Part shown: piece after piece, positions 2,174 to 48,151 of the stretch | Layout: each line of letters begins with the position of its first letter | Numbering within the stretch: the stretch's first letter is position 1 | Assembly (NCBI GenBank): GCA_016186435.1 | Contig: JACPLQ010000020.1 | Coordinates: 1 to 49,352 of the forward strand | Length of the DNA: 49,352 nt | Reading direction: 5' to 3' | Source: Candidatus Nomurabacteria bacterium | GTDB lineage: Bacteria > Patescibacteriota > Minisyncoccia > Phycocordibacterales > UBA9973 | The notes under the pieces: generated by a model | Seen by the model: the letters and a program-made list of their open reading frames with translations, nothing else | Told to the model about the DNA's origin: nothing | Databases searched by the model: none | Translations under genes and position numbers: made by a program

Positions 2174-3229
2174 TCACCTGCTAATTATTGCCAAAATTAC
2201 ACCAATAATCGCAAACATGACGGATATTACCCAGAATCGCATCGTAACTTTATAAGAAGACCAGCCTATCGCTTCAAAATGGTGATGAATAGGGGCAAGT
2301 TTGAATATTCTTTTGCCTCCGCGAAATTTTTTTGAAAGCATCTGTAGAATCACTGAACCGGAACTGATAACGAGAGGCATTGCCACCACAGGAAGGACCA
2401 AAACCGAGTCAGTCAGAAACGCCATAGTGGCGAGCGTAATAGTCAGGCCCATTATTCCCGTCTCTCCCATGTAAAACCTCGCCGGTGGAATATTGAACCA
2501 CAAAAATGCGAGAGTCACGCCCATGATAACTCCGGAAAAAGCTGCAAGATCGAGCTGATTGTTAGCCAGAGCTATAATAGAGTAGGCGCCAAAGATTGAT
2601 GCCAGCACCCCTCCTGAAAGCCCGTCTATGCCGTCTATGACTCCGCCGGAAAAAGTCGCCAGCGCAACTATTACAAAAAATGGAATAACTAAAATTCCTA
2701 GATAAATTTCTCCGCCAAATGGGATATGGATAGAAGTTAATCCTAATTTATAAAAAAACCACATACCGATAAAAACTGAAACTACACCCACTAAAAATGC
2801 TTTCCATTTGCGCCAAGACGCATCATCTCGCGCGAATATGCCGTTTCCGTAAATTTGTATAAGGTCATCCCATAAACCAATCAGAGAGCCCAAGAGAAGA
2901 GTAAAAAAAGGAATTAAAGTCTGATTCCTGCTTAAAAAATTGACTTCTTCCATAGCTGGATACGGAAACAGAACCGAAGCGAAGTAAAAAACTAACGTAG
3001 TTAGGAGCGCTGAAACCCAGATGATTATTCCTCCGACACGCGGAGTTACCAGTTCTTCCGCCTCATTGTGCACGGTGTGAAATTCTTCAGCGTGAGCGTC
3101 CAGATTCCTGGAATATTTCTTCCACATTTTATATTTGTAGAAATAATGTGTGGCGAGAGGAGTGATAGCAAGGGCAATAAAAAAAGCGAAGGCTGTCGGT
3201 ATGGAAATTTTAATTAAGTTTAAAAGCAT
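2174..3229 (-). CDS. mraY: phospho-N-acetylmuramoyl-pentapeptide transferase
   Basis: 351-aa polytopic membrane protein with MraY-type motifs (GLWDDLIQ, APIHHHFE). dcw-cluster position. Confidence 0.9.
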   Translation of the reverse strand: MLLNLIKISIPTAFAFFIALAITPLATHYFYKYKMWKKYSRNLDAHAEEFHTVHNEAEELVTPRVGGIIIWVSALLTTLVFYFASVLFPYPAMEEVNFLSRNQTLIPFFTLLLGSLIGLWDDLIQIYGNGIFARDDASWRKWKAFLVGVVSVFIGMWFFYKLGLTSIHIPFGGEIYLGILVIPFFVIVALATFSGGVIDGIDGLSGGVLASIFGAYSIIALANNQLDLAAFSGVIMGVTLAFLWFNIPPARFYMGETGIMGLTITLATMAFLTDSVLVLPVVAMPLVISSGSVILQMLSKKFRGGKRIFKLAPIHHHFEAIGWSSYKVTMRFWVISVMFAIIGVILAIISR

Positions 3230-3248
3230 AGATAAATTATAACATTTT

Positions 3249-3542
3249 TTAAATTCTTACTCCTTCTTTGATTAAAAGCGCTCGCTTGGCTTTCGTCCCG
3301 CCCCTGCCTGAATATCCGCCCAAGCTTCCGTCGCTCCTAATGACTCGATGGCAAGGTATTTCTACTATAAGAGGATTTGCGCCGACAGCATTAGCGACTG
3401 CCCGCACAGCGTCCAGCCTGCCGATTCGCCTCGCTAGCTCTTTGTAAGTAATAGTTTTTCCTTTTGGAATATGAAGGAGCGCCTTCCAGACTTTTTTCTG
3501 AAACGCAGTGCCTTTTAATTTTTCTACATTAATCTTAACCAT
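3249..3542 (-). CDS. ogt: methylated-DNA--protein-cysteine methyltransferase, active-site domain only (97 aa)
   Basis: Contains the PCHRV active-site motif ([17 protein letters not shown]). The short form lacks the N-terminal domain. Confidence 0.85.
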
Positions 3543-3545
3543 TTT

Positions 3546-3818
3546 TTATTTAAACATTTTGCAAAATGACAAAATGTTCCTTCCCCTCTTAGTAAGGCTA
3601 TGCATTACGAACCGACCTTCGTATCTTTTTTCCACTAGCCCGGCATCTGCTAATTTGCGTATGTGGTCAGAAATCGTAAAAAATCCAACATTCAAGTTCT
3701 GAGATATATCATCAACCGATAAATTTGAAATTCTTCCTAAGAGTTCCAAAATTTGAATCCTTCTGTGGTTGGCGAACCCCTTCACAATTTTCTCAACTCT
3801 TTTATATTTTATATTCAT
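3546..3818 (-). CDS. ArsR/SmtB-family winged-helix transcriptional regulator
   Basis: 90 aa with an ArsR-like HTH region (FANHRRIQILELL...ISDHIRKLADAGLVEKR). No obvious alpha-3 CXC metal site. Flanked by 29-bp perfect inverted repeats. Confidence 0.8.
   Translation of the reverse strand: MNIKYKRVEKIVKGFANHRRIQILELLGRISNLSVDDISQNLNVGFFTISDHIRKLADAGLVEKRYEGRFVMHSLTKRGRNILSFCKMFK
3548..3576. promoter_or_regulatory. 29-bp box containing the palindrome CATTTTGCAAAATG (left inverted repeat, in the arsR-like 3' end, upstream of ogt)
   Basis: ATTTAAACATTTTGCAAAATGACAAAATG is the perfect reverse complement of 3835-3863. Confidence 0.6.
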
Positions 3819-3834: not shown

Positions 3835-3863
3835 CATTTTGTCATTTTGCAAAATGTTTAAAT
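3835..3863. promoter_or_regulatory. 29-bp box containing CATTTTGCAAAATG (right inverted repeat, arsR-like promoter region)
   Basis: CATTTTGTCATTTTGCAAAATGTTTAAAT. The TTGCAA core lies 16 nt upstream of the ATAATA -10 box of the ArsR-family gene. Confidence 0.6.
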
Positions 3864-15586: not shown

Positions 15587-15659
15587 CCCAGTACTAAAAT
15601 TTTAAATTTTTATTTTTAATGGTTATTTATTTTACTCAAAAATTTAGTACGGGACAAGT
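15587..15659 (-). promoter_or_regulatory. leader stem-loop, copy 2 (ribH); its 5' arm lies inside the ribE 3' coding end
   Basis: Minus strand reads ACTTGTCCCGTACTAAATTTTTG...TTTAAAATTTTAGTACTGGG|ATG(15586). 73 nt. Confidence 0.6.
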
Positions 15660-16215
15660 ATTTAGCAGTTATATCAAATTCCAGATTCACCAAATCGCCT
15701 TTTGTCTTATATTTTAAATTGGTGTGTTTCAGAGTATGTGGAATGACTTTTATAACAAAAGAATCTTTTAAAACCTTGGCCACTGTCAAGCTGATGCCCT
15801 CAACCGCAACCGACCCTTTGTAAACTAAAAACTTTTTAAACTCTTTATCCGGCAACTTTATATCAAATACTTTTGAATTCCCCTCTGTCTTTATGCCAAG
15901 AATTTTACCTCTTCCGTCAACATGCCCCAGTACTATGTGACCGTGGAGCCGGTCATTCAAACGCATCGACTTCTCAACATTCACTATATCCTCTTTTTTT
16001 AAAAAGCTCAAATTGGAGAGTTTCAAGGTCTCCGGCATATACTCAAAAGAAATGTTTTTGCCGACTCCTTTTATTGTGGAGCAAACTCCGTTTACAGCAA
16101 TGCTTTCACCTTTTTTTAATTTCCCAAGATTGTTGTAAACTTCCAAGTTAAGACCACTTTTACTCAGCTTTCTGCTTTTTACTTTTGAAGTTTTGGATAT
16201 TATACCCGTGAACAT
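15616..16215 (-). CDS. ribE: riboflavin synthase
   Basis: The N-terminus MFTGII is typical. Start set at the ATG 16215, which directly follows the conserved ...AGTACTGTG arm. The track start at 16218 is a GTG one codon upstream. Confidence 0.9.
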   Translation of the reverse strand: MFTGIISKTSKVKSRKLSKSGLNLEVYNNLGKLKKGESIAVNGVCSTIKGVGKNISFEYMPETLKLSNLSFLKKEDIVNVEKSMRLNDRLHGHIVLGHVDGRGKILGIKTEGNSKVFDIKLPDKEFKKFLVYKGSVAVEGISLTVAKVLKDSFVIKVIPHTLKHTNLKYKTKGDLVNLEFDITAKYLSRTKFLSKINNH

Positions 16216-16234
16216 CACAGTACTAAAATTTTAA
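16216..16234 (-). promoter_or_regulatory. half copy (3' arm only) of the leader element, in front of ribE
   Basis: Minus strand reads TTTAAAATTTTAGTACTGTG|ATG(16215). No matching 5' arm found upstream. Confidence 0.45.
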
Positions 16235-19582: not shown

Positions 19583-20998
19583 ATGACAAAAAATATTGCA
19601 TTTAGTACGAAGGGCGCGAAAACAAACCTGCGTATTCCTCCTCAAAGCATCCCTTCCGAACAGGCAGTCTTGGGCTCCATCATGCTCCGCAAAGACGCCA
19701 TGCATGAAGTGGAAGACATGGTAACTCCGGAATCTTTTTACGTTGAAAAGCACAAGATGATATTCCGCGCGATGCTTGACTTGTCGGTAAAAAACGAACC
19801 GATAGACATGCTTTCTCTTTCCACAAAGCTCGGGGAGCAGAAAATCCTTGAAGCAGTCGGGGGCAATCAGTATTTGGCTGAAATCGTAAACCTCGTCCCC
19901 TCTTCTACAAATGTAAAACACTACGCTGACATAGTGCAGAAAAAATATGTCTTGAGAAGCTTGATAGAAGCGGCAGACTATGTTTCCGAACTTGCCTTTG
20001 AAGAAGGCGATGATCATATGGACGATATTTTGGATATGGCGGAAAAGAAAATTTTCCACGTAGTATCCAGCCCGAAAAATCAAAAATATGTAAACTTAAA
20101 AGATGCCCTGCCGGAAGCTTATGAGCGCTTGGAAAAATTGCATGAGAACAAAGGAATGCTCCGCGGGCTCCCGACCGGATTCAAAGATTTAGACACCATG
20201 CTCTCCGGCTTGCAGAAATCCGATTTGATAATTCTCGCCGCACGGCCATCTATGGGTAAGACTACTCTCGCTCTTGATATTGCCCGTATGGCTTCTACCA
20301 CGCATGAAAAATCTGTCGTTATATTCTCTCTGGAAATGTCTTCCCAGCAATTGGTGGACAGAATGCTTTCTGCGGAATCCCGAGTCAATGCCTGGAACTT
20401 GCGCACGGGACGCCTTTCTTCAGATAGAGAATTTTCCCAATTGCGCGACTCGCTGGACAAACTCGCAAAAGCTCAAATTTATATTGACGACCAGCCTGGA
20501 AACTCTATCGTTCGGATGAAAGCTCTTGCCCGCAGATTAAAAGCAGAAAAAGGAGTTGACCTTATCGTTGTGGATTACTTACAGCTTATGACCACTTCCA
20601 AAAATTATGATTCTATGGTCAACCAAGTCACCGAGATATCGCGTTCACTCAAAAGTTTGGCCAAAGAACTGGATGTCCCCGTTTTGGCGCTTTCGCAACT
20701 TTCTCGCGCAGTGGAATCGCGCGGTGGCAAGCCCCGGCTTTCCGACTTGAGAGATTCCGGCTCCATTGAGCAGGATGCCGATGTGGTCATGTTCATTCAT
20801 AGGGAAGACAAAATGAAGGGCGCAGAAGAATCCGAAAAAACCAATATCGCGGAAATTTTGATAGAAAAACACAGAAACGGCCCCACCGGAAAAATTGAAC
20901 TTTATTTTGATGAAAAGACCACTACGTTCCTAAACCTTGAAAAGAGCAACATCAGCGAATTTGCTCCAACAGTAAGAGGTGATTTAGATGAATTCTAA
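19583..20998 (+). CDS. dnaB: replicative DNA helicase
   Basis: 471 aa. Shows PPQSIPSEQAVLGSIM, Walker A AARPSMGKTT, and the DnaB C-terminal RecA fold. Confidence 0.95.
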   Translation: MTKNIAFSTKGAKTNLRIPPQSIPSEQAVLGSIMLRKDAMHEVEDMVTPESFYVEKHKMIFRAMLDLSVKNEPIDMLSLSTKLGEQKILEAVGGNQYLAEIVNLVPSSTNVKHYADIVQKKYVLRSLIEAADYVSELAFEEGDDHMDDILDMAEKKIFHVVSSPKNQKYVNLKDALPEAYERLEKLHENKGMLRGLPTGFKDLDTMLSGLQKSDLIILAARPSMGKTTLALDIARMASTTHEKSVVIFSLEMSSQQLVDRMLSAESRVNAWNLRTGRLSSDREFSQLRDSLDKLAKAQIYIDDQPGNSIVRMKALARRLKAEKGVDLIVVDYLQLMTTSKNYDSMVNQVTEISRSLKSLAKELDVPVLALSQLSRAVESRGGKPRLSDLRDSGSIEQDADVVMFIHREDKMKGAEESEKTNIAEILIEKHRNGPTGKIELYFDEKTTTFLNLEKSNISEFAPTVRGDLDEF

Positions 20999-21005
20999 AA
21001 TGGAT

Positions 21006-21116
21006 CCCGTACGAAATCGCGGACGCATATAAGTAAAATAATGAAATTCATTCAATCGATTATTAATAATAAAATAAAGGGAATAGCGTAAGTGTACGCG
21101 TCCTATTTCGTACGGG
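21006..21116 (+). promoter_or_regulatory. diverged leader stem-loop, copy 7 (recR)
   Basis: CCCGTACGAAAT-cgc-GGACGC (21006-21026) pairs with GCGTCC-t-ATTTCGTACGGG (21098-21116), which directly abuts ATG 21117. Confidence 0.55.
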
Positions 21117-21752
21117 ATGGACATTATAGACAGGCTAACCGAAGTGTTCAAAGAGTTTCCGGGAATCGGCGAACGGCAAGCAAAGCGCTTTGTATATTTT
21201 TTAATGTCCCGCAATCCTGCATATGCGGAAAATTTATCGGAACTAATTTTGGAATTAAAAAAAGAAATCGCCCAATGCAAAGAGTGCTTCAGATTTTTTA
21301 TATTGAATAAAGGAAAAGAGAAATTATGTGATATTTGCGGAAACGTGAACACCGACTCCTCTACCCTGCTGGTAGTTGAAAAAGATTCAGATTTAGAAAG
21401 CATTAGAAAAAGTAGAGTGTATAATGGGAAATATTTTATCCTTGGCGGTCTTGTGCCAATCGTAGAGAAGACTACAAAGAGCCGGGTGCGAATTGAAGAA
21501 TTGAAAAATAAAATAAGTAGCGAGGCAAGGCCTAGCTCGCTAGGCCTTGCCTCGCTGAAAGAAATTATTCTCGCATTTTCCATCAGTCCCCAGGGTGATC
21601 ACACAGATACGTACGTGCGAGCCGAACTAAAAGAAATAGTCGAAAAATCCGGCATAAAAATTTCCTCTCTAGGCAAAGGCCTCTCCACCGGCACAGAACT
21701 GGAATATTCCGATAACGACACACTCAAAAATGCCTTAAAAAATAGACAATAA
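21117..21752 (+). CDS. recR: recombination protein RecR (carries an in-frame palindromic insertion)
   Basis: HhH N-terminus (FPGIGERQAKR), C4 zinc finger (CKEC...CDIC), Toprim region. Confidence 0.9.
   Translation: MDIIDRLTEVFKEFPGIGERQAKRFVYFLMSRNPAYAENLSELILELKKEIAQCKECFRFFILNKGKEKLCDICGNVNTDSSTLLVVEKDSDLESIRKSRVYNGKYFILGGLVPIVEKTTKSRVRIEELKNKISSEARPSSLGLASLKEIILAFSISPQGDHTDTYVRAELKEIVEKSGIKISSLGKGLSTGTELEYSDNDTLKNALKNRQ
21519..21556. repeat. GC-rich palindromic element, family 1, in frame inside recR
   Basis: AGCGAGGCAAGGCCTAGC-tc-GCTAGGCCTTGCCTCGCT, encoding SEARPSSLGLASL. Confidence 0.7.
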
Positions 21753-22135: not shown

Positions 22136-22141
22136 GCAAGT

Positions 22142-28357: not shown

Positions 28358-30391
28358 TCATTCCAAAATTTTCCTCAAGACGTCTTCAGGCACTTCTGGT
28401 GGAACAGTTTTTTGAGACACAGGAGCAGGAGTTGGGGTCTTTTGCGCTATCAAATTTTTCAATTTATTCATGTCTTCCGGGGTCGCCGCGCGATCTTTTT
28501 GACGAGACACGGTTTCTTGTTTGACGTCCCGCATTTTGTCTTTGAGGGTATCGAGGGAAATCGGGCTGGGCGCAGAAGCAGATGGCTGCGGAGCTGATCT
28601 GGAGGTATCTTGCAGCGCCTTGCTTAAAACTTCTTTCAAAGCTGAATGGTCGCTTGGTTTGTCTTTGTGTACAACAGGAGGTTTTGAATGAAATACTTTT
28701 TTAACCGCATTAAATATGCCCGACTTGCTTGCCGGAGGTTGTTGCTGCTGCTTGTGTTCTGCTCTTTCCGGATATCTTTCTTTTTCTTCGTGAATTTTGC
28801 CTTCTTTTGGCGCAAATTCTATGCCCAAATCCGCTAAGGGTTTGTAAAATTTTGAGTCATCATACTTTATCTGATTTTCAGAGCCTTTTTCCACTTTTAC
28901 TTCTCCGGATTTTATTTTAGCAATGCATTCTTTGCAGTATACAGGTCTCCCCGGTTCTGGTTTAAAAGGCACCGTCTTTTCCAGCCCGCAAAGCGAACAA
29001 ATTATCTGGAATTTTTCCATGCTTCCTTGCCCCCCTACATAACCCGCGGAACTCACTCCACTTGGTTCCATGTCACCCAAAGACATTCCGCTCCAATTAT
29101 TTATTTCTCTTTCTACATCTTCTTTGGATTTGCAATAAAGTTTACGAGAAGATTCGATAACCTCTTGTTCAATTTTTCTGTCCCCGCCTTTGACCATCTG
29201 CGGCAGAGTTTTCGCGGAAAAAGGACGGGAGGTCACGCCGTCTATCATAAGTTTCATGTACACTTTGTAGTTCGGCAAATTTACTATATCCTGCGGGACG
29301 AATTCAGGCTCAAATTCTTTTTCCAAAAAGTCCGCATCGTCTGCGCCAACTCTAAAAACTATTATCGTACCGACGTTGCCAAAGACAGCGTCGCGCACGG
29401 CAGAACTCTTGTCAGAAATGAGCTGAGCGGTATATTGGTGCGCCACAGTTAGATTTAGTCTATATTTTCTAGCTTCAGAAAGTATTCCGGCAAATGCGTC
29501 CGTCACGAAATTTTGGAACTCGTCAACGTATAAATAAAAATCTTTGCGATGTTCTTCCGGAATGCGCACGCGCTCCATGGCCGCGAGCTGGATCTTGGTA
29601 ATGATCATGCCTCCCAAAAGCGCCGAATTGTCTTCTCCGATGCGTCCTTTGGAAACATTCACCAGAAAAATTTTCCCTTCATTCATCATGTCAAAAATAT
29701 TTATCGTGCTCCTTGTCTGACCAACGACATTTCTGATAATAGAAGTAGAAAGAAACTGCCCGACTTTGTTTTGGATCGGGGCAATAGCTTCATTTCTAAA
29801 TTTATCCTGCCACGCTTCGTACTCGTGCACCCAGAAAGCCTTGATGACCGGATCCTTCAGGTTGGAAATTATTTTCTGGCGATAGTCTTTATCTACGAGC
29901 ATCCTAGGGATGCCGAGAAGCGTGGTCCCCGGCGTATCAAGCAGAGCCAGAATAGTATTATTTAAAATATATTCCATTCTGGCGCTCCAAGCATTCGCCC
30001 AGATTTTCGTAAATATGCCCATGAGCCCCGAGGCCACTAGGTGCTTATATTGCGGATCTATGAGCTCTAGGACGTTGAAACCAATATGGTAGTCTGTATC
30101 AGCAGGATTAAAATAAACGACATCCTTTAAACGATGCCTAGGAATAGCTGATAAAATTGCTTCTACGTTTTCTCCGTGCGGATCCACCATGCAAACGCCT
30201 TCGCCATTCTGGATGTTCTGAATAATCATGTTGAACATGAGCACAGATTTACCTGTACCGGATTTTCCGAGAATATAAACATGCTGGCGCCTGTCTTTGC
30301 GCTTAATTCCAAAAAGCTGATTCTTATCCCGATAAGTAGTAATTCCCAGATAAGTAACGTCCTTATTTACGGGTATTTCCGGAAGTTCCAT
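28358..30391 (-). CDS. soluble VirD4/TraG/TraD-like P-loop ATPase, paralog 1, with C-terminal zinc ribbon and Pro/Lys-rich tail
   Basis: Walker A ILGKSGTGKS, Walker B FYLYVDEFQN. C-terminal CSLCG...VPFKPEPGRPVYCKEC ribbon. Confidence 0.7.
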   Translation of the reverse strand: MELPEIPVNKDVTYLGITTYRDKNQLFGIKRKDRRQHVYILGKSGTGKSVLMFNMIIQNIQNGEGVCMVDPHGENVEAILSAIPRHRLKDVVYFNPADTDYHIGFNVLELIDPQYKHLVASGLMGIFTKIWANAWSARMEYILNNTILALLDTPGTTLLGIPRMLVDKDYRQKIISNLKDPVIKAFWVHEYEAWQDKFRNEAIAPIQNKVGQFLSTSIIRNVVGQTRSTINIFDMMNEGKIFLVNVSKGRIGEDNSALLGGMIITKIQLAAMERVRIPEEHRKDFYLYVDEFQNFVTDAFAGILSEARKYRLNLTVAHQYTAQLISDKSSAVRDAVFGNVGTIIVFRVGADDADFLEKEFEPEFVPQDIVNLPNYKVYMKLMIDGVTSRPFSAKTLPQMVKGGDRKIEQEVIESSRKLYCKSKEDVEREINNWSGMSLGDMEPSGVSSAGYVGGQGSMEKFQIICSLCGLEKTVPFKPEPGRPVYCKECIAKIKSGEVKVEKGSENQIKYDDSKFYKPLADLGIEFAPKEGKIHEEKERYPERAEHKQQQQPPASKSGIFNAVKKVFHSKPPVVHKDKPSDHSALKEVLSKALQDTSRSAPQPSASAPSPISLDTLKDKMRDVKQETVSRQKDRAATPEDMNKLKNLIAQKTPTPAPVSQKTVPPEVPEDVLRKILE

Positions 30392-35612: not shown

Positions 35613-36221
35613 TTATGTTTGGTCTGCTTCTCCGCCTTTGTATTCGTATAAATTTACTCTTGCCGGACGGATGACGCGCTCGCCCAGCTTGTATCCCCTT
35701 TGAATTACTTTTGCCACTTTGTGGTCCAATTCTTTTTTATCTGTTTCCACCATATCTATTGATTCATGTATATTCGGATCAAAAGTTTCACCCTCTACTC
35801 CTGTGGGCTTAACTCCATATTCTTCAAAAATAGTATTGAGTTGGGAATAAATATGCTGTATGCCTATTCGCCAATTTAAATCTACTTTTTCCCATACTTC
35901 TTTGTCAGAAAAAGCTATGTTGAAACTATCTATAATAGTAAGAAACCGAGTCAATATACGCTCGCGCATTGCTTCGGAAAACATCGCCTTGCGGTCATCT
36001 TCTTGCTTCCTGTAATTTGCGAATTCCGCTCGCTCTTTCTGCCAGCCGGTCAGGTATTCTTCTTTTTCTTTCTTTGCCTGCTTCAAATCTGCCCTAAATT
36101 TCTTTAGAGTTTTCTTTAAATCCTCTTCCCCGTCTTCATTAAATTCAAACTCAAGAATCTCCGATTCCTCTTCTGCTTGCTGTTCTTCTTTTTTTTCTGT
36201 TTGTTCTTCATCATCACTCAT
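35613..36221 (-). CDS. grpE: nucleotide exchange factor GrpE
   Basis: GrpE C-terminal pattern (GVKPTGVEGETFDPNIHESI, VIQRGYKLGERVIRPARV). The ATG at 36221 lies 6 nt after TGCTAAAGT. Confidence 0.9.
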   Translation of the reverse strand: MSDDEEQTEKKEEQQAEEESEILEFEFNEDGEEDLKKTLKKFRADLKQAKKEKEEYLTGWQKERAEFANYRKQEDDRKAMFSEAMRERILTRFLTIIDSFNIAFSDKEVWEKVDLNWRIGIQHIYSQLNTIFEEYGVKPTGVEGETFDPNIHESIDMVETDKKELDHKVAKVIQRGYKLGERVIRPARVNLYEYKGGEADQT

Positions 36222-36227
36222 ATACAC

Positions 36228-39960: not shown

Positions 39961-40067
39961 CCCAGTATTAAAATTTTACCTTAGCTATTAATCTTAATGT
40001 ATTTCTATGTTTCATAATTATATTTATTTTTTGTATTACTCAATCAAAAATTTAATACGGGACAGGT
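39961..40067 (-). promoter_or_regulatory. leader stem-loop, copy 5 (rpsM), long-loop variant between rpmJ and rpsM
   Basis: Minus strand reads ACCTGTCCCGTATTAAATTTTTG...GTAAAATTTTAATACTGGG|ATG(39960). Both arms carry the matching C->T / G->A change. Confidence 0.55.
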
Positions 40068-43275: not shown

Positions 43276-45021
43276 TCACAAAAGCACAGCTTTTATTCTG
43301 CGTATACCCTGCGCCACTGCTTCTTCTTTTTGGATTTTAAACTTACTCAATTCCTTTGTGTTAGAAACATGCGGTCCTCCGCAGAATTCTTTGGAAAAAA
43401 TATTGCCTTCTTTGTCTTGTATAAAATATACAGAAACCATGTCTGCGTATTTGGCTCCAAATTCCATCTCGGCGCCGATACGCTTTGCTTCTTCTAGGGG
43501 CATTTCCTTGCGCACAACATCAAGACCTCGCTTTATCTTCTCGTTTACCCAATTTTCAACTTTTTTCTTTTCTTCGTCGGTTAATTTATGGTCACAGAGA
43601 AAATCTATGCGCAGGCGTTCTTCAGTTATATTGCTCCCGCGCTGTTTGATTTCAGGGCCAATCACAGTTTGAAGTCCGGCCAAAAGCAAATGATGAGCAG
43701 TGTGCAGTCTTATTGTTTTTTTGTTATGGTTTGCAAGCCCGCCTTTAAACATGCCGGCAGACGCAGTCTGTGAAAGTCTCTGATGTTCTGCCATTTTCTT
43801 ATGAAAGTCTTCAAGGTCAATTTCCTTGCCTAACTCATGAGCTAACTCAGCAGTTAACTCAATCGGAAAACCGTAGGTCGTAGCCAAAATAAACGGGTCT
43901 ATGCCTTTTTCAAATTCCTTGAGACCTTCTTTGAGAGTTTTTCTAAATTTGCTTTCTTCGTCGAAAATAACTTGTTCTGTTATTTTGTCATTTTGCAAAA
44001 TGTTTGAATATTGAGTTTTATATTTATCCACGAAAATTTCTAAAATTTTCTTTATAAATCCGGAATCAAGTCCGATCTGATCTATTTTAAATACTGCGCG
44101 GCGAATCAATCGGCGCAAAACATAACCCTGGTCCTTGTTCCCCGGAATTACTCCATCCGAAATTAAAAAAATAGAACTTCTCAAGTGGTCTGCAATTATT
44201 CTGGCTGATCTCTCGTCATAATTCTGTGAATTTTCTTTTATCATATTCATCACTGGTGCAAAAATATCAGTTTCATAAATACTTTTTTTACCCTGCGCTA
44301 CAGTCGTGACTCGCTCTAATCCTGCTCCTGTATCTACATTTTTATTAGGCAACTCGCCTGCAACTTTTCCGTCCTCTTGTTTATAAGCCATAAAAACATC
44401 GTTCCAAATTTCTACGACTTTTTGTTCGTCTTCAGCTTTTTCAAATTGCTCCTGATTCATATCACCAAGCGAACCCGTTAAGTCATAGAACATTTCGGTT
44501 GAAGGACCTGCAGGAGAATTGGTGCCTGCGCTCCACCAATTTGATTTGGAACTTTTAAAATAAATCCTGTGCTCCGGAATACCCAGTGCTTTCCAAATTT
44601 CTACTGATTCTAGATCACGAACAACTGCTTCGCTTCCCCCAAAGACAGTTACATACAAACGCGACACGTCAAGCCCTAAACCTTCATCTTTTTTTGTTAA
44701 AAATTCGTAACTCCATTTTATAGCGTCTTCTTTAAAATAGTCACCCAGGGACCAGTTGCCAAGCATCTCAAAAAAAGTTAAATGAGTACTATCTCCTACT
44801 TCCTCTAGATCAATCGTGCGAACACATTTTTGAGAATTTGCCAGACGTTTGCCCTGCGGATGTTTTAGCCCTAGGAGATGTGGCATCAATGGCTGCATAC
44901 CAGCAATATTAAAAAGTACCGAAGGATCATTTTCGGGTACAAGCGAAGCGGAAGGAATTATTTTATGCCCTCTTTTTTCAAAAAATTTTAAAAACCTTTT
45001 TCTGATCTCATTTGACTCCAT
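43276..45021 (-). CDS. alaS: alanine--tRNA ligase, short form (581 aa)
   Basis: N-terminus EIRKRFLKFFEKRGHKIIPSASLVPENDPSVLF. Editing-site motifs HTAHHLL and CGGPHV. Much shorter than typical bacterial AlaRS. Confidence 0.88.
   Translation of the reverse strand: MESNEIRKRFLKFFEKRGHKIIPSASLVPENDPSVLFNIAGMQPLMPHLLGLKHPQGKRLANSQKCVRTIDLEEVGDSTHLTFFEMLGNWSLGDYFKEDAIKWSYEFLTKKDEGLGLDVSRLYVTVFGGSEAVVRDLESVEIWKALGIPEHRIYFKSSKSNWWSAGTNSPAGPSTEMFYDLTGSLGDMNQEQFEKAEDEQKVVEIWNDVFMAYKQEDGKVAGELPNKNVDTGAGLERVTTVAQGKKSIYETDIFAPVMNMIKENSQNYDERSARIIADHLRSSIFLISDGVIPGNKDQGYVLRRLIRRAVFKIDQIGLDSGFIKKILEIFVDKYKTQYSNILQNDKITEQVIFDEESKFRKTLKEGLKEFEKGIDPFILATTYGFPIELTAELAHELGKEIDLEDFHKKMAEHQRLSQTASAGMFKGGLANHNKKTIRLHTAHHLLLAGLQTVIGPEIKQRGSNITEERLRIDFLCDHKLTDEEKKKVENWVNEKIKRGLDVVRKEMPLEEAKRIGAEMEFGAKYADMVSVYFIQDKEGNIFSKEFCGGPHVSNTKELSKFKIQKEEAVAQGIRRIKAVLL
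43982..44005. promoter_or_regulatory. same box inside the alaS coding sequence
   Basis: ATTTTGTCATTTTGCAAAATGTTT, encoding NILQNDKI in AlaRS. Confidence 0.4.
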
Positions 45022-45472
45022 TTTCTTCAGAAATTTTTCTTATCGGCTTTTCAATAATATTTACTAAAATTAGTATAAGTAAAACAAGAACAGTGACAAT
45101 GAATGCCAGACCAAAAAATCCAAAACCTGCGGCCATGCCTATGCCCGCCATCACCCAAAGCCCGCCTGCAGTGGTAAGACCTCGGAGCTGAGAGCCATAA
45201 AGCATTATGGATCCGGCGCCTAAGAATCCAATACCGACAATAATTTGCGAAGCGATTCGGGTCGGATCAAAACCGCCAATAGCCTGATATTTAAGAGCTA
45301 TCATTTCAGAAATTATAACAAATAAAGCCGAACCTAAAGATACGAGCGCGTGCGTTTTCATGCCGGCGTCTTTATGCACGAAAAGTCTCTCCAGCCCTAC
45401 TATTATTCCTAACCCCACAGCTACGGTTAATCTTAAAATAATTTCACTATTTTCTGTTAAAAATTGAGTCAT
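45008..45472 (-). CDS. mgtC: MgtC/SapB-family membrane protein
   Basis: 154 aa, 4-5 TM. MgtC-like RLTVAVGLGIIVGLER...GMKTHALVSLGSAL. Confidence 0.8.
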   Translation of the reverse strand: MTQFLTENSEIILRLTVAVGLGIIVGLERLFVHKDAGMKTHALVSLGSALFVIISEMIALKYQAIGGFDPTRIASQIIVGIGFLGAGSIMLYGSQLRGLTTAGGLWVMAGIGMAAGFGFFGLAFIVTVLVLLILILVNIIEKPIRKISEENGVK

Positions 45473-45479
45473 GAATTAA

Positions 45480-46643
45480 TTATACAACTACTCCCCCGCC
45501 TAAGCAAACATCTCTATCGTAAACCACGACAGACTGGCCGGATGCGACCAAAATTGGTTTATCAAAAATTATCTCTGCTCTGTTTTTTTCCAAAACTCTT
45601 ACTCGACATGGCAGAAATTCTCCGTGATATCGAATTTGAGCTCTATAATTTTTATTTTCTTTTGGAGTTTCCGAGATCCAATTTGTGTATGCTAAATTAA
45701 GAGAAAAATGCTGTAAATTTTTTGAGCGGAAGGTTCCGCCCGCAGGATGGAGTAAAGCCAAATAATTTACAGCATTTTTCTCTTGCGAAACTATTAACGT
45801 ATTTTTCTTTATATCTTTGCCGACAATGTAATAAGGGCTGTCTTTTGGGCTCTTTTTTGTAACTGTAAAACCATGCCGTTCGCCTAGCGTATGAAAAACG
45901 ACTCCGTCGTGAAATCCGATCTTTTCCCCTTTCTCATCCCCCGCTTCCTGCGGGGCAAGCATTACTTTTCCTTTTTTTTCTTTGATATAGTGTTTCAAAA
46001 ATTCTTTCAGATCCACGGCGCCGAGAAAGCAAATTCCCTGACTGTCTTTTTTCTCGGCTACTGGCAGTTTAAACTTTCTCGCTAACTTTCTTACTTCTGT
46101 TTTCCTTAAATTCCCCACTGGAAACAAAATTTTACTTAACTGTTTTTGATTTAGCGTCCACAAAAAATAACTTTGATCTTTAGAAGAGTCTTTGCCTTTT
46201 ATTAATTGGCAATTTTCTTGTCGGGTGTTGGACACCCAATTCGCGGGTGTCCAACACCCGACAATTCGTGAATAATGCCCTGTCGCCACAAAATCCGCCC
46301 CCATCGCAAGCGCTTTTTTTAGGAAGGCGCCGAATTTTACTTCTTTATTGCACATGACATCTGGGTTCGGCGTCCTACCGGCACGGTACTCCCGAATCAT
46401 GTAATCGGCAACTTCTTTTTTATAGACATCTTCGAGATCAAATGTAAGAAACGGAATATCCAAAAAAGCCGACACGCGCATGGCATCTCGGCGCTCTTCC
46501 TCTTCATTGCATTCCAGAAAGTCCGGATGCCAAGTCTTTATGAAGACTCCCACAACTTCATATCCTTCTTTCTTCAAAAGCGCGGCCGAAACGGCGCTAT
46601 CAACGCCTCCCGAAAGACCCACAAAAACAACTTTTTTCTCCAT
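45480..46643 (-). CDS. mnmA: tRNA 2-thiouridine(34) synthase MnmA (carries in-frame palindromic insertion)
   Basis: PP-loop GLSGGVDSAVSA, KDQSYFL, 387 aa. Confidence 0.92.
   Translation of the reverse strand: MEKKVVFVGLSGGVDSAVSAALLKKEGYEVVGVFIKTWHPDFLECNEEEERRDAMRVSAFLDIPFLTFDLEDVYKKEVADYMIREYRAGRTPNPDVMCNKEVKFGAFLKKALAMGADFVATGHYSRIVGCWTPANWVSNTRQENCQLIKGKDSSKDQSYFLWTLNQKQLSKILFPVGNLRKTEVRKLARKFKLPVAEKKDSQGICFLGAVDLKEFLKHYIKEKKGKVMLAPQEAGDEKGEKIGFHDGVVFHTLGERHGFTVTKKSPKDSPYYIVGKDIKKNTLIVSQEKNAVNYLALLHPAGGTFRSKNLQHFSLNLAYTNWISETPKENKNYRAQIRYHGEFLPCRVRVLEKNRAEIIFDKPILVASGQSVVVYDRDVCLGGGVVV
46220..46262. repeat. 18-bp-stem perfect palindrome in frame inside mnmA
   Basis: GTCGGGTGTTGGACACCC-aattcgc-GGGTGTCCAACACCCGAC, encoding part of VGCWTPANWVSNTR. 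Confidence 0.65.
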
Positions 46644-46652
46644 TTATTAAAC

Positions 46653-47183
46653 TTACAGACTCATCAGCTTTTTGTAAAGCTCAAAAGTAGCCCGCGCGTC
46701 GGACAAAGCGGTATGGGCGCGTTTGTTTACTATGCCAAAGTAGAGACACAATTCACGCAAAGAAAAATGTTCCAAGTCCGGATTGCGGTGCATTTTAGCC
46801 CAAGCGATAGATATGGTGTCCAGTTTATGATAATGAAGGGTGTTCACTATATTGGTTTTGCTAAAAGCGGATTCCAAAAACCCGGAATCAAAAGCTACAT
46901 TATGGCCAACCATAATGGAATCTTTAACTTTATCGGCAAAAATTTTTATGGCTTCTTCCAGTGAATAGGCTTCTTCCCACGCTTTTTCATCATAATGGCT
47001 TATCTTCAGAGACACCGGATCGGCATCTTCTATGCGCTCTGGTTTGATTTTTAATTCAAAGTCTTCTATGACCTCAAGTTCGGAATTGGTTAAAACACAG
47101 CCGATTTCAATAATCTCATGCCTGATAAGATTTAAACCAGTCAACTCTATATCTATGAAAGCAAAATTGTGTTTTCTCATCAC
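46653..47183 (-). CDS. DEDDh 3'-5' exonuclease (DnaQ-like)
   Basis: Exo motifs FIDIELTGL, GHNVAFD, HTALSDA. Confidence 0.8.
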   Translation of the reverse strand: MMRKHNFAFIDIELTGLNLIRHEIIEIGCVLTNSELEVIEDFELKIKPERIEDADPVSLKISHYDEKAWEEAYSLEEAIKIFADKVKDSIMVGHNVAFDSGFLESAFSKTNIVNTLHYHKLDTISIAWAKMHRNPDLEHFSLRELCLYFGIVNKRAHTALSDARATFELYKKLMSL

Positions 47184-48078: not shown

Positions 48079-48151
48079 CCCAGTACTAAAATTTTAATTT
48101 TTTTATAATCATGGTTATTTTACGTCCTCAAAAATTTAGTACGGGACAAGT
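48079..48151 (-). promoter_or_regulatory. leader stem-loop, copy 6 (mltG)
   Basis: Minus strand reads ACTTGTCCCGTACTAAATTTTTG...TTAAAATTTTAGTACTGGG|ATG(48078). 73 nt. TATAAT at 48154-48159 just upstream. Confidence 0.6.

Follow-up and report, generated by a model that had tools for sequence, protein, structure and literature searches.

A palindromic repeat, probably of mobile origin, at the start codon of recR in a Candidatus Nomurabacteria bacterium

Results

A palindromic repeat at the dnaB-recR junction

The DNA analyzed here (the window) is a stretch of 49,352 nt from a Candidatus Nomurabacteria bacterium (GenBank assembly GCA_016186435.1, contig JACPLQ010000020.1, positions 1 to 49,352 of the forward strand), an assignment (Parcubacteria, candidate phyla radiation) that the homologs of its RecR bear out, and the element in question is a palindromic repeat that separates dnaB from recR and ends at the recR start codon. 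Positions are those of the window unless they follow the label of a related locus (L001, L002, etc.); ORF denotes an open reading frame. The junction contains the following features.

20996-20998 (+), TAA stop codon of dnaB (ORF 19583-20998, with DnaB and DnaB_C domains)
21000-21004 (+), A of the original recR start codon (21000) followed by the 5' copy of the target duplication, TGGA (21001-21004), as judged from the empty site in L001
21000-21032 (+), short upstream ORF with the translation MDPVRNRGRI*
21005-21117 (+), inserted palindromic element of type 2, 113 nt, from comparison of filled and empty sites
21006-21017 (+), 5' arm of the outer helix (arm A'), CCCGTACGAAAT
21021-21026 (+), 5' strand of the inner helix, GGACGC
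21027-21097 (+), A/T-rich loop, 71 nt
21098-21103 (+), 3' strand of the inner helix, GCGTCC
21105-21116 (+), 3' arm of the outer helix (arm B'), ATTTCGTACGGG
21118-21121 (+), 3' copy of the target duplication, TGGA, which with the terminal A (21117) rebuilds ATGGA, the start of recR
21117-21752 (+), recR, intact, 211 aa, with the N-terminus MDIID as in orthologs without the insert

A sequence-only reading of the window had described this repeat as the recR copy of a recurrent leader, and its coordinates, the 12-nt complementarity, the pairing of GGACGC with GCGTCC, the 71-nt loop, and the ATG at 21117 were all correct. The two outer arms are exact reverse complements, and the outer helix is separated from the inner one by an asymmetric internal loop of 3 nt (CGC, 5' strand) and 1 nt (T, 3' strand). 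The comparison of folding energy with shuffled controls, proposed in that reading, came out in its favor: RNAfold yielded -34.9 kcal/mol for the recR-leader RNA versus -19.8 ± 3.5 kcal/mol for dinucleotide shuffles (z = -4.3; 0 of 200 shuffles as good), and it lengthened the helix by an A-U and a U-A pair, in which the AU of GGAU (21004-21005) meets the first two bases of the recR AUG. The small AATGAA/TTCATT hairpin described within the loop is present as sequence but marginal as structure; its arms are 1 nt apart and can form at best five A/U-rich pairs around a 3-nt loop, and it lies outside the minimum-energy fold. No extended -10 motif of the kind used by the host (TGnTAnnnT) was found in the loop, for which a generic promoter scan returned a single weak 9/12 site lacking the TG. 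The helix is followed by ATGGACATT and does not constitute an intrinsic terminator of dnaB, a scan detecting just a minor inner stem that lacks a true T tract. Rfam 15 provided no match over any copy in the window, at gathering thresholds or at E ≤ 1, and no tRNAs were found in the window.

A 12-nt inverted repeat alone is unremarkable because the window holds 131 inverted repeats of at least 11 nt, an abundance that favors chance occurrence within an A/T-rich spacer. The recR repeat is non-random because it belongs to a recurring family. The family motif, with up to two mismatches, was matched 10 times in the window versus 3.6 expected, and 0 of 100 shuffles reached 10. When the 12 nt upstream of ∼50 gene starts were scored for an upstream partner, recR ranked at the top (12/12), and a score of at least 11 together with family sequence was restricted to the six family copies. 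Chance is refuted by this recurrence against shuffles, by the fold, by the identical arms found elsewhere, and by the precise insertion borders; it retains next to no probability.

These borders were defined by comparison with L001, the closest syntenic relative (82% identical to the window in DNA sequence across the genes they share), where the dnaB-recR junction is spacer-free (TAA-A-ATGGAT-ATT, within TCTAAA-ATGGAT-ATT). BLAST aligned positions 10001-10006 of L001 (ATGGAT) to both 21000-21005 and 21117-21122 of the window, and the alignment of the two sequences broke exactly at the element borders. The filled site has the layout A[TGGA]-T·CCCG…CGGG·A-[TGGA]C with perfect 13-nt termini, T·CCCGTACGAAAT … ATTTCGTACGGG·A, and the last base of the insert (21117) is the A of the present recR start codon. 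One base (A, 20999) lies between the dnaB stop and the upstream copy of the ATG. The sole ORF within the insert is the 10-codon read-in frame, MDPVRNRGRI*, which begins at the retained upstream ATG, crosses both 5' helix strands, and stops in the loop. The earlier statement that the helix ends just before the ATG holds as a position, but the cause is mechanical: the foot of the helix lies there because the element supplies the A of the ATG as its final base and the duplicated target supplies the TG. Judged from these borders, the recR repeat is best explained as a palindromic insertion, resembling a miniature inverted-repeat transposable element (MITE), that rebuilt the start codon it had split.

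In related genomes, the orthologous junction mostly lacked the repeat. The dnaB-recR gap was 0-19 nt in 41 of 81 surveyed loci, many other surveyed junctions carry a leaderless recR promoter (TGnTAnAAT-N6-ATG), and the hairpin was missing at recR from most of 80 related genomes; it was present in seven examined loci (the window, L002, L036, L040, L041, L065, and L173), with a decayed copy in L069. This distribution speaks against the notion of a conserved recR leader, for which orthologous regions without the inverted repeat had been named in advance as a refuting outcome. The same comparison did provide the further matched arms that the sequence-only reading had suggested looking for, namely CCCGTTAGAGAT/ATCTCTAACGGG in L002 and L036 and CCCGTTAGAAGC/GCTTCTAACGGG in L040, each perfectly complementary, and the recR arms vary between genomes yet always match themselves (CCCGTACGAAAT, CCCGTTAGAGAT, CCCGTTAGAAGC, and CCCGTTAAAAAT). 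At least three other, unrelated insert families were seen at this junction elsewhere, just upstream of locus position ∼10001 (in L010, L020, L026, and L058; in L005, L030, L044, L074, L075, and L081; and in L013 and L066). One of them is a CCCCCACCC…GGGGGAGG palindrome, another is a conserved structured block of ∼100 nt (AGTTCTTGAGAAAAGCC…GCTTTTCGAGAGAAGCTA), and the third is common to L013 and L066. The dnaB-recR junction looks like an insertion hotspot.

Type 2 elements and their target duplications

Comparison of copies across loci indicates an abundant Nomurabacteria repeat family with CCCGT…ACGGG termini that comprises two types. Type 2, which includes the recR copy, has perfect arms, a terminal pair that is T…A or C…G, and 4-bp direct repeats as flanks, the latter seen at ∼20 sites. 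The duplicated sequence is TGGA at recR, L175, and L004, TGAA in L053, L174, L183, and L152, TGTA in L002, and TGAG in L188, and away from start codons it is TCAA (L195), TTTA (L188), or TCTA and TATG (L111). Because of these non-ATG sites, the length of the duplication is fixed at 4 and the terminal N/N' pair is assigned to the element, so the A of an abutting ATG is the element's own last base. All three copies at GTG starts have C…G termini, compared to T…A in the 57 ATG-start rows. Approximately 14 of 21 type-2 sites are at start codons, and one copy lies upstream of a promoter. A scan of viral contigs with the type-2 pattern revealed two type-2-like elements, both away from start codons, and with the type-1 pattern it gave only chance matches to the 5' arm.

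A 50-nt class with a G+C-rich loop (CCGCGAGGGCTCGC…) occurs at L004 4732-4779, L195 3098-3145, and L188 969-1016. In L004 and L195, it is located within a long ORF whose frame is kept (50 + 4 bp of duplication = 54 nt), and the L188 copy overlaps an ORF start. The type-2 copy at L184 1150-1268 (- strand) is preceded by the direct repeat CTGAA instead of ATGAA, and the upstream ORF now stops at a TAG within the 5' arm; because the upstream repeat copy is CTGAA, the abutting ATG in L184 may have been newly made from the element's terminal A and the duplicated TG.

The T→G/A→C difference between the recR arms and the window consensus is real, as is the missing bulged T, and the recR element is a true relative of the other leaders with its pairing kept while the sequence differs. 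The interpretation of this copy as a drifted version of the window leader did not survive: it is a distinct subtype with a 4-bp duplication and with the same arms at unrelated genes. The supposedly compensatory recR pair is a subfamily trait, because the exact recR arms recur before unrelated genes elsewhere (e.g., a peptidase M29 gene in L002).

Type 1 elements in the window

The five other window copies are of type 1 (consensus ACYTGT-CCCGTACTAAATTTTTGA…TTAAAATTTTAGTAC(T)GGG-ATG), and all five fold as a hairpin closing on the AUG. Type 1 is characterized by a constant ACYTGT 5' flank (ACTTGT in 57 and ACCTGT in 47) and by a 3' arm with an additional (bulged) or wobbled base close to its foot. 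Two length classes, of ∼66 and ∼101 nt, were distinguished, the short one with two loop subfamilies (A and B) that are well conserved across genes and genomes; such conserved loops appear to fit recently amplified repeats. The copies and one remnant are listed below.

11445-11516 (+), type 1 with ACTTGT flank and bulged 3' arm, subfamily A, immediately before the start codon (ATG) of a TrpR-family gene
15587-15659 (-), type 1, subfamily B, directly 5' of the ribH ATG; the site is empty in L001
16216-16240 (-), type-1 3'-arm remnant, GATTTAAAATTTTAGTACTGTG, before the ribE ATG; a full element occupies the same site in L024
22143-22214 (+), type 1, subfamily A, directly before the ATG of an AI-2E transporter gene, with the promoter TGTTATAAT and 7 nt on its 5' side
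39961-40067 (-), type 1, long class (∼101 nt), 5' of rpsM
48079-48151 (-), type 1, subfamily B-like, 5' of the yceG/mltG gene

The window copies at ribH, recR, and the AI-2E gene are missing from L001 at precisely delimited sites. In L001, ribE and ribH overlap and the AI-2E gene is leaderless; the AI-2E site is also empty in L002 and L003, with a BLAST break at 22140/22215. The ribH copy rewrites the ribE C-terminus from KYANQK* to KYLSRTKFLSKINNH*, and the rpsM copy has arms with a compensated C→T/G→A variant (GTATTAAA/TTTAATAC). No target duplication was found for type 1, the empty sites showing clean insertion between A and TG; a hidden duplication of 2-6 bp within the ACYTGT flank was considered and rejected against these sites. 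The ribE remnant (TTTTAGTACTGTG-ATG) overlaps the end of a flavokinase gene and is also carried by L001; its form suggests an internal deletion between short TAAAA repeats.

The gene at 11517-11933 encodes a TrpR-family protein and stands directly behind one copy, and the arms GTACTAAAT/ATTTAGTAC resemble the Escherichia coli trp operator, GTACTAGTT/AACTAGTAC. The arms might then be DNA operator half-sites for this protein. Compensated changes in the arms would weaken both half-sites, which are 40-90 bp apart at variable spacing and would have to serve more than 100 unrelated target genes, and neither the strict orientation to the ATG nor the target duplications in the family fit such a function. 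We rejected this reading on the compensated changes, the variable spacing, and the number of unrelated targets, and consider it very improbable.

Leaderless host genes and the placement of type 1 at start codons

Many genes of the window show that the host is mostly leaderless, with TGnTAnAAT, 6-7 nt, and then ATG, and without a Shine-Dalgarno sequence (e.g., 2174-3229, 12661-12999, 28358-30391, and 45008-45472). In 84 related loci, the distance between the extended -10 and the ATG shows a sharp maximum at 6 nt (192 of 1075 ORFs). Some of the listed GTG and TTG starts are really ATGs located 3-6 nt downstream (46653-47183, 35613-36227, and 15616-16218). The possibility that the arms themselves are promoter hexamers (TTGTCC as -35 and TAAAAT as -10) was rejected on their spacings of 28-50 nt and because neither hexamer occurs in the recR copy.

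Placement was assessed by a metagenome scan that used the type-1 5' arm only and was blind to downstream sequence. It yielded 115 elements with a matching 3' arm, 107 of which were followed directly by ATG. Type-1 copies are always in the orientation of the gene (∼115 copies), and the genes behind them are very diverse (ribosomal proteins, aminoacyl-tRNA synthetases, dnaB, folA, clpP, and membrane proteins). Four exceptions that are followed by ATTAATA (L128, L167, L177, and L178) represent one orthologous gene, whose ATG is inside the element loop and whose frame reads through the 3' arm as AAA ATT TTA GTA CTG GGA (KILVLG); this peptide is part of an N-terminal hydrophobic membrane segment, the repeat having been recruited as coding sequence. 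A non-coding RNA behind these four copies was rejected, given the lack of an Rfam match and the ORF that starts in the loop. In type-1 copies with an extended -10, 6 nt separate that motif from the first A of the element, whose start is therefore the predicted +1. Approximately 27% of type-1 copies have an extended -10 at this distance, a share similar to that in ordinary genes. Targeting to transcription start sites was therefore rejected, and the specificity is for the start codon, because the promoter share of the copies matches that of ordinary genes. The window copies occur on both chromosomal strands within a single monotonic GC-skew trend.

The A/TG insertion point, the gene orientation, and the lack of a duplication would also suit a separate explanation of type 1 as a class of start-codon-homing cassettes adapted to leaderless expression and either harmless or regulatory. 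The hairpin may then be removed or bypassed such that the rebuilt AUG is still used, or it may act as a genus-wide translational switch. We hold this account of type 1 tentatively and think it unlikely.

The leaderless habit of the host and the extent of the element, which runs exactly from the predicted +1 to the last base preceding the AUG, also speak for a processing signal: an endonuclease (e.g., RNase III) would cut at or near the 3' base of the helix and restore a leaderless mRNA with its 5' end at the AUG or a few nt upstream, making the element nearly invisible to its host, like an intron requiring one cut. No nuclease is known to us that cuts precisely at the 3' foot of a helix of this kind, the loops are too variable for a self-cleaving ribozyme, and no Rfam ribozyme was matched. 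On the other side, conservation within the element is highest at the base of the helix (CCCGU / ACNGGG-A), and in the Correia elements of Neisseria, co-transcribed hairpins are bound and cut or protected by RNase III (PMC2649163). On balance, processing seems decidedly unlikely.

Pairing, covariation, and the case for an RNA leader

Covariation was examined in an alignment of 60 distinct arm sets that were loop-trimmed and joined by an artificial AAAAAA linker, since MAFFT misaligned the recR 3' arm in full-length copies. In this alignment, 91.7% of cells pair, and changes on both sides were seen at 9 of 17 pairs (124 cells). The score for covariation was 0.359 versus 0.152 for shuffles, none of 500 of which reached 0.359, and slid registers gave at most 0.10, values that apply to rows pre-selected for pairing in the 12-nt arms and that the inverted termini of a mobile element would produce as well. 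Arm symmetry alone is no proof of selection at the RNA level, because the terminal inverted repeats of mobile elements match too. The earlier argument that structure rather than sequence is under selection is borne out to the extent that 9 of 17 pairs covary and the recR arms always match, but terminal inverted repeats look alike, and RNA-level selection is only partly supported.

Such selection would be expected if the hairpin were a cis-regulatory RNA leader, serving as a translational operator for many genes, with the mobile features as its means of spread. The AUG would be sequestered, and the hairpin would be opened or bound by a trans-acting factor or opened by kinetic refolding. Besides the strong covariation, the strict gene-relative orientation of ∼115 type-1 copies, on both chromosomal strands in the window, agrees with this explanation, as do the near invariance across species of the type-1 arms of ∼20 nt, the retention of copies at orthologous sites, and wobble pairs that form only on the sense strand. 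Subfamily A furthermore has a conserved alternative 5' hairpin, TGTCCCGTA/TACGGGRCA, with -12 to -13 kcal/mol alone versus -18 to -22 kcal/mol for the full fold, and this hairpin covaries between subfamilies (GTA/TAC versus GTTA/TAAC); according to the predicted energies, it would free the AUG on nascent RNA. Several observations are at odds with a regulatory leader. The downstream genes share no theme, the same genes lack the element in close relatives, and copies decay or are partly deleted. Type 2 shows target duplications, with copies inside ORFs and upstream of promoters, no Rfam family matches, and both subfamily B and the long class are without the alternative hairpin. Conservation at orthologous genes was not seen for recR and was seen in part at the aspS and TrpR-family sites. 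We judge a regulatory leader to be unlikely as the explanation of the family.

Other repeats in the window

A second, unrelated palindrome family (AGCGAGGCAAGGCCTAGC/GCTAGGCCTTGCCTCGCT) is represented at 21519-21556, within recR, at 2136-2171, and at ∼9940-9985 of L003. The copy inside recR is in frame and encodes SEARPSSLGLASL; RecR orthologs occur with or without this segment, and one has an extra repeat. From these sequences, the SEARPSSLGLASL segment looks like an in-frame insertion of the kind exemplified by Rickettsia palindromic elements (RPE). A perfect 29-nt inverted repeat, ATTTAAACATTTTGCAAAATGACAAAATG (3548-3576 and 3835-3863), brackets a 90-aa ORF (3546-3818), and the same sequence is also found before the neighboring ORF (3249-3542); it could be a duplicated promoter or operator or an invertible segment. 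A perfect 20-nt palindrome with a 7-nt spacer, TTGTCGGGTGTTGGACACCC/GGGTGTCCAACACCCGACAA, lies at 46218-46264 inside ORF 45480-46643.

Discussion

We favor, with moderate confidence, an explanation in which the recR repeat is a MITE-type insertion, copies of the family survive at start codons, and recR expression is coupled to the short upstream ORF. The comparison of filled and empty sites shows that the element split the recR start after its A, at what had been a tightly coupled dnaB-recR junction, and duplicated 4 bp of target, TGGA, and that its terminal A and the duplicated TG restore an intact ATGGA start. In compact, mostly leaderless genomes, a start codon rebuilt by the element would be nearly the sole tolerated insertion site, and surviving copies would pile up at start codons in the orientation of the gene. 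The transcribed element would form a very stable 5' hairpin that buries the AUG. Ribosomes finishing dnaB (UAA-A-AUG) would most likely re-initiate at the retained upstream ATG, and translation of the 10-codon ORF through the 5' strands of both helices would melt the hairpin and free the recR AUG.

Several points weigh against this explanation. At recR, the upstream ATG is no longer present in the copies of L040 and L041. A search of 2.1 Mb of related loci for an autonomous insertion sequence sharing these termini found none and yielded only paired small copies. The type-1 ACYTGT flank, without a duplication, is unexplained by the type-2 mechanism. A start codon directly follows ∼93% of type-1 copies, and 3' intergenic regions contain none, a bias stronger than simple survivor filtering might produce and one that could reflect active targeting or real function. 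Different species retain copies at orthologous sites (aspS, the TrpR-family gene, and recR), and the aspS lineage includes a compensated change, AAAT/ATTT to AAAA/TTTT; together, these observations point to a host-level constraint on pairing. Finally, inspection of sequences and folds identified type-1 pairs that exist on the sense strand only (UGU against AUG by U-A, G·U, and U·G, and a G·U in the UAAUGGG arms), which would suggest selection on the transcript.

The recR-type element shares with bacterial MITEs its small size, lack of coding capacity, terminal inverted repeats, and fixed 4-bp duplication (type 2), as well as its high copy number, its subfamilies, the sites that are empty in relatives, and the presence of decayed copies. 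A fixed duplication is a property of type 2 and not of type 1, the major type, which lacks any and has a fixed orientation to the gene. The extreme association with start codons, the completion of the codon by the element's last base, and the lack of a detected parent insertion sequence also set the family apart from usual MITEs. The Correia repeat enclosed elements (CREE) of Neisseria duplicate TA at their targets and are not positioned at the start codon, unlike the Nomurabacteria family, with its 4-bp duplication (TGGA and others) and a helix foot that is the start codon. CREE are palindromic repeats of ∼100-150 bp with more than 100 copies per genome, often 5' of genes, that vary in presence or absence between strains; they carry promoter and integration host factor sites, and their co-transcribed mRNA hairpins, which RNase III binds, can alter expression (PMC2649163). 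By analogy, the closest counterparts of the present family appear to be co-transcribed bacterial MITEs, above all these Neisseria elements, with RPE as the counterpart of the in-frame copies. RPE are defined by in-frame insertion in ORFs, and both the 50-nt class with the G+C-rich loop (L004, L195, and L188) and the separate GGCAAGGCC palindrome inside recR are tolerated in frame in a similar manner; unlike RPE, the Nomurabacteria family is found mainly at the 5' boundary of ORFs.

Other hairpin-forming repeats include REP/REPIN, associated with RAYT transposases, and palindrome-associated elements derived from IS200/IS605. Type 1 resembles them in its lack of a duplication, its fixed orientation, and the left-end sub-terminal hairpin of subfamily A. 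It differs in that no conserved flanking tetranucleotide exists besides the ATG, the 5' flanks outside the type-1 element not being conserved, and in that orientation follows the gene rather than one strand; moreover, a duplication flanks the recR copy, and genes for RAYT or TnpA were not seen. Start-codon hairpins unfolded by ribosomes are known from MS2 coat-replicase coupling and from erm leader peptides, and the recR arrangement is similar in that an upstream frame crosses the 5' strand of a helix burying a downstream start. The recR upstream ORF differs from those cases in being an accidental product of target duplication, and its use is proposed here by inference. No description of the family was found in Rfam or the searchable literature, and it is apparently undescribed.

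The puzzle of a helix that ends at an ATG has a mechanical answer, the last base of the element completing the codon. A streamlined lineage of the candidate phyla radiation carries a prolific repeat family that we did not find in Rfam or in the searchable literature. For annotation, these repeats predict true starts and explain "spacers" of 70-120 nt, altered C-termini (ribE), and in-frame inserts (recR). The start-codon specificity of type 1 is the part most deserving of follow-up. With more than 100 genes behind the same AUG-burying hairpin, the family provides a natural experiment on how leaderless, Shine-Dalgarno-independent translation deals with 5' structure. In dense leaderless genomes, the start codon is perhaps the main niche for small mobile elements, which would tie genome architecture to the persistence of mobile DNA.

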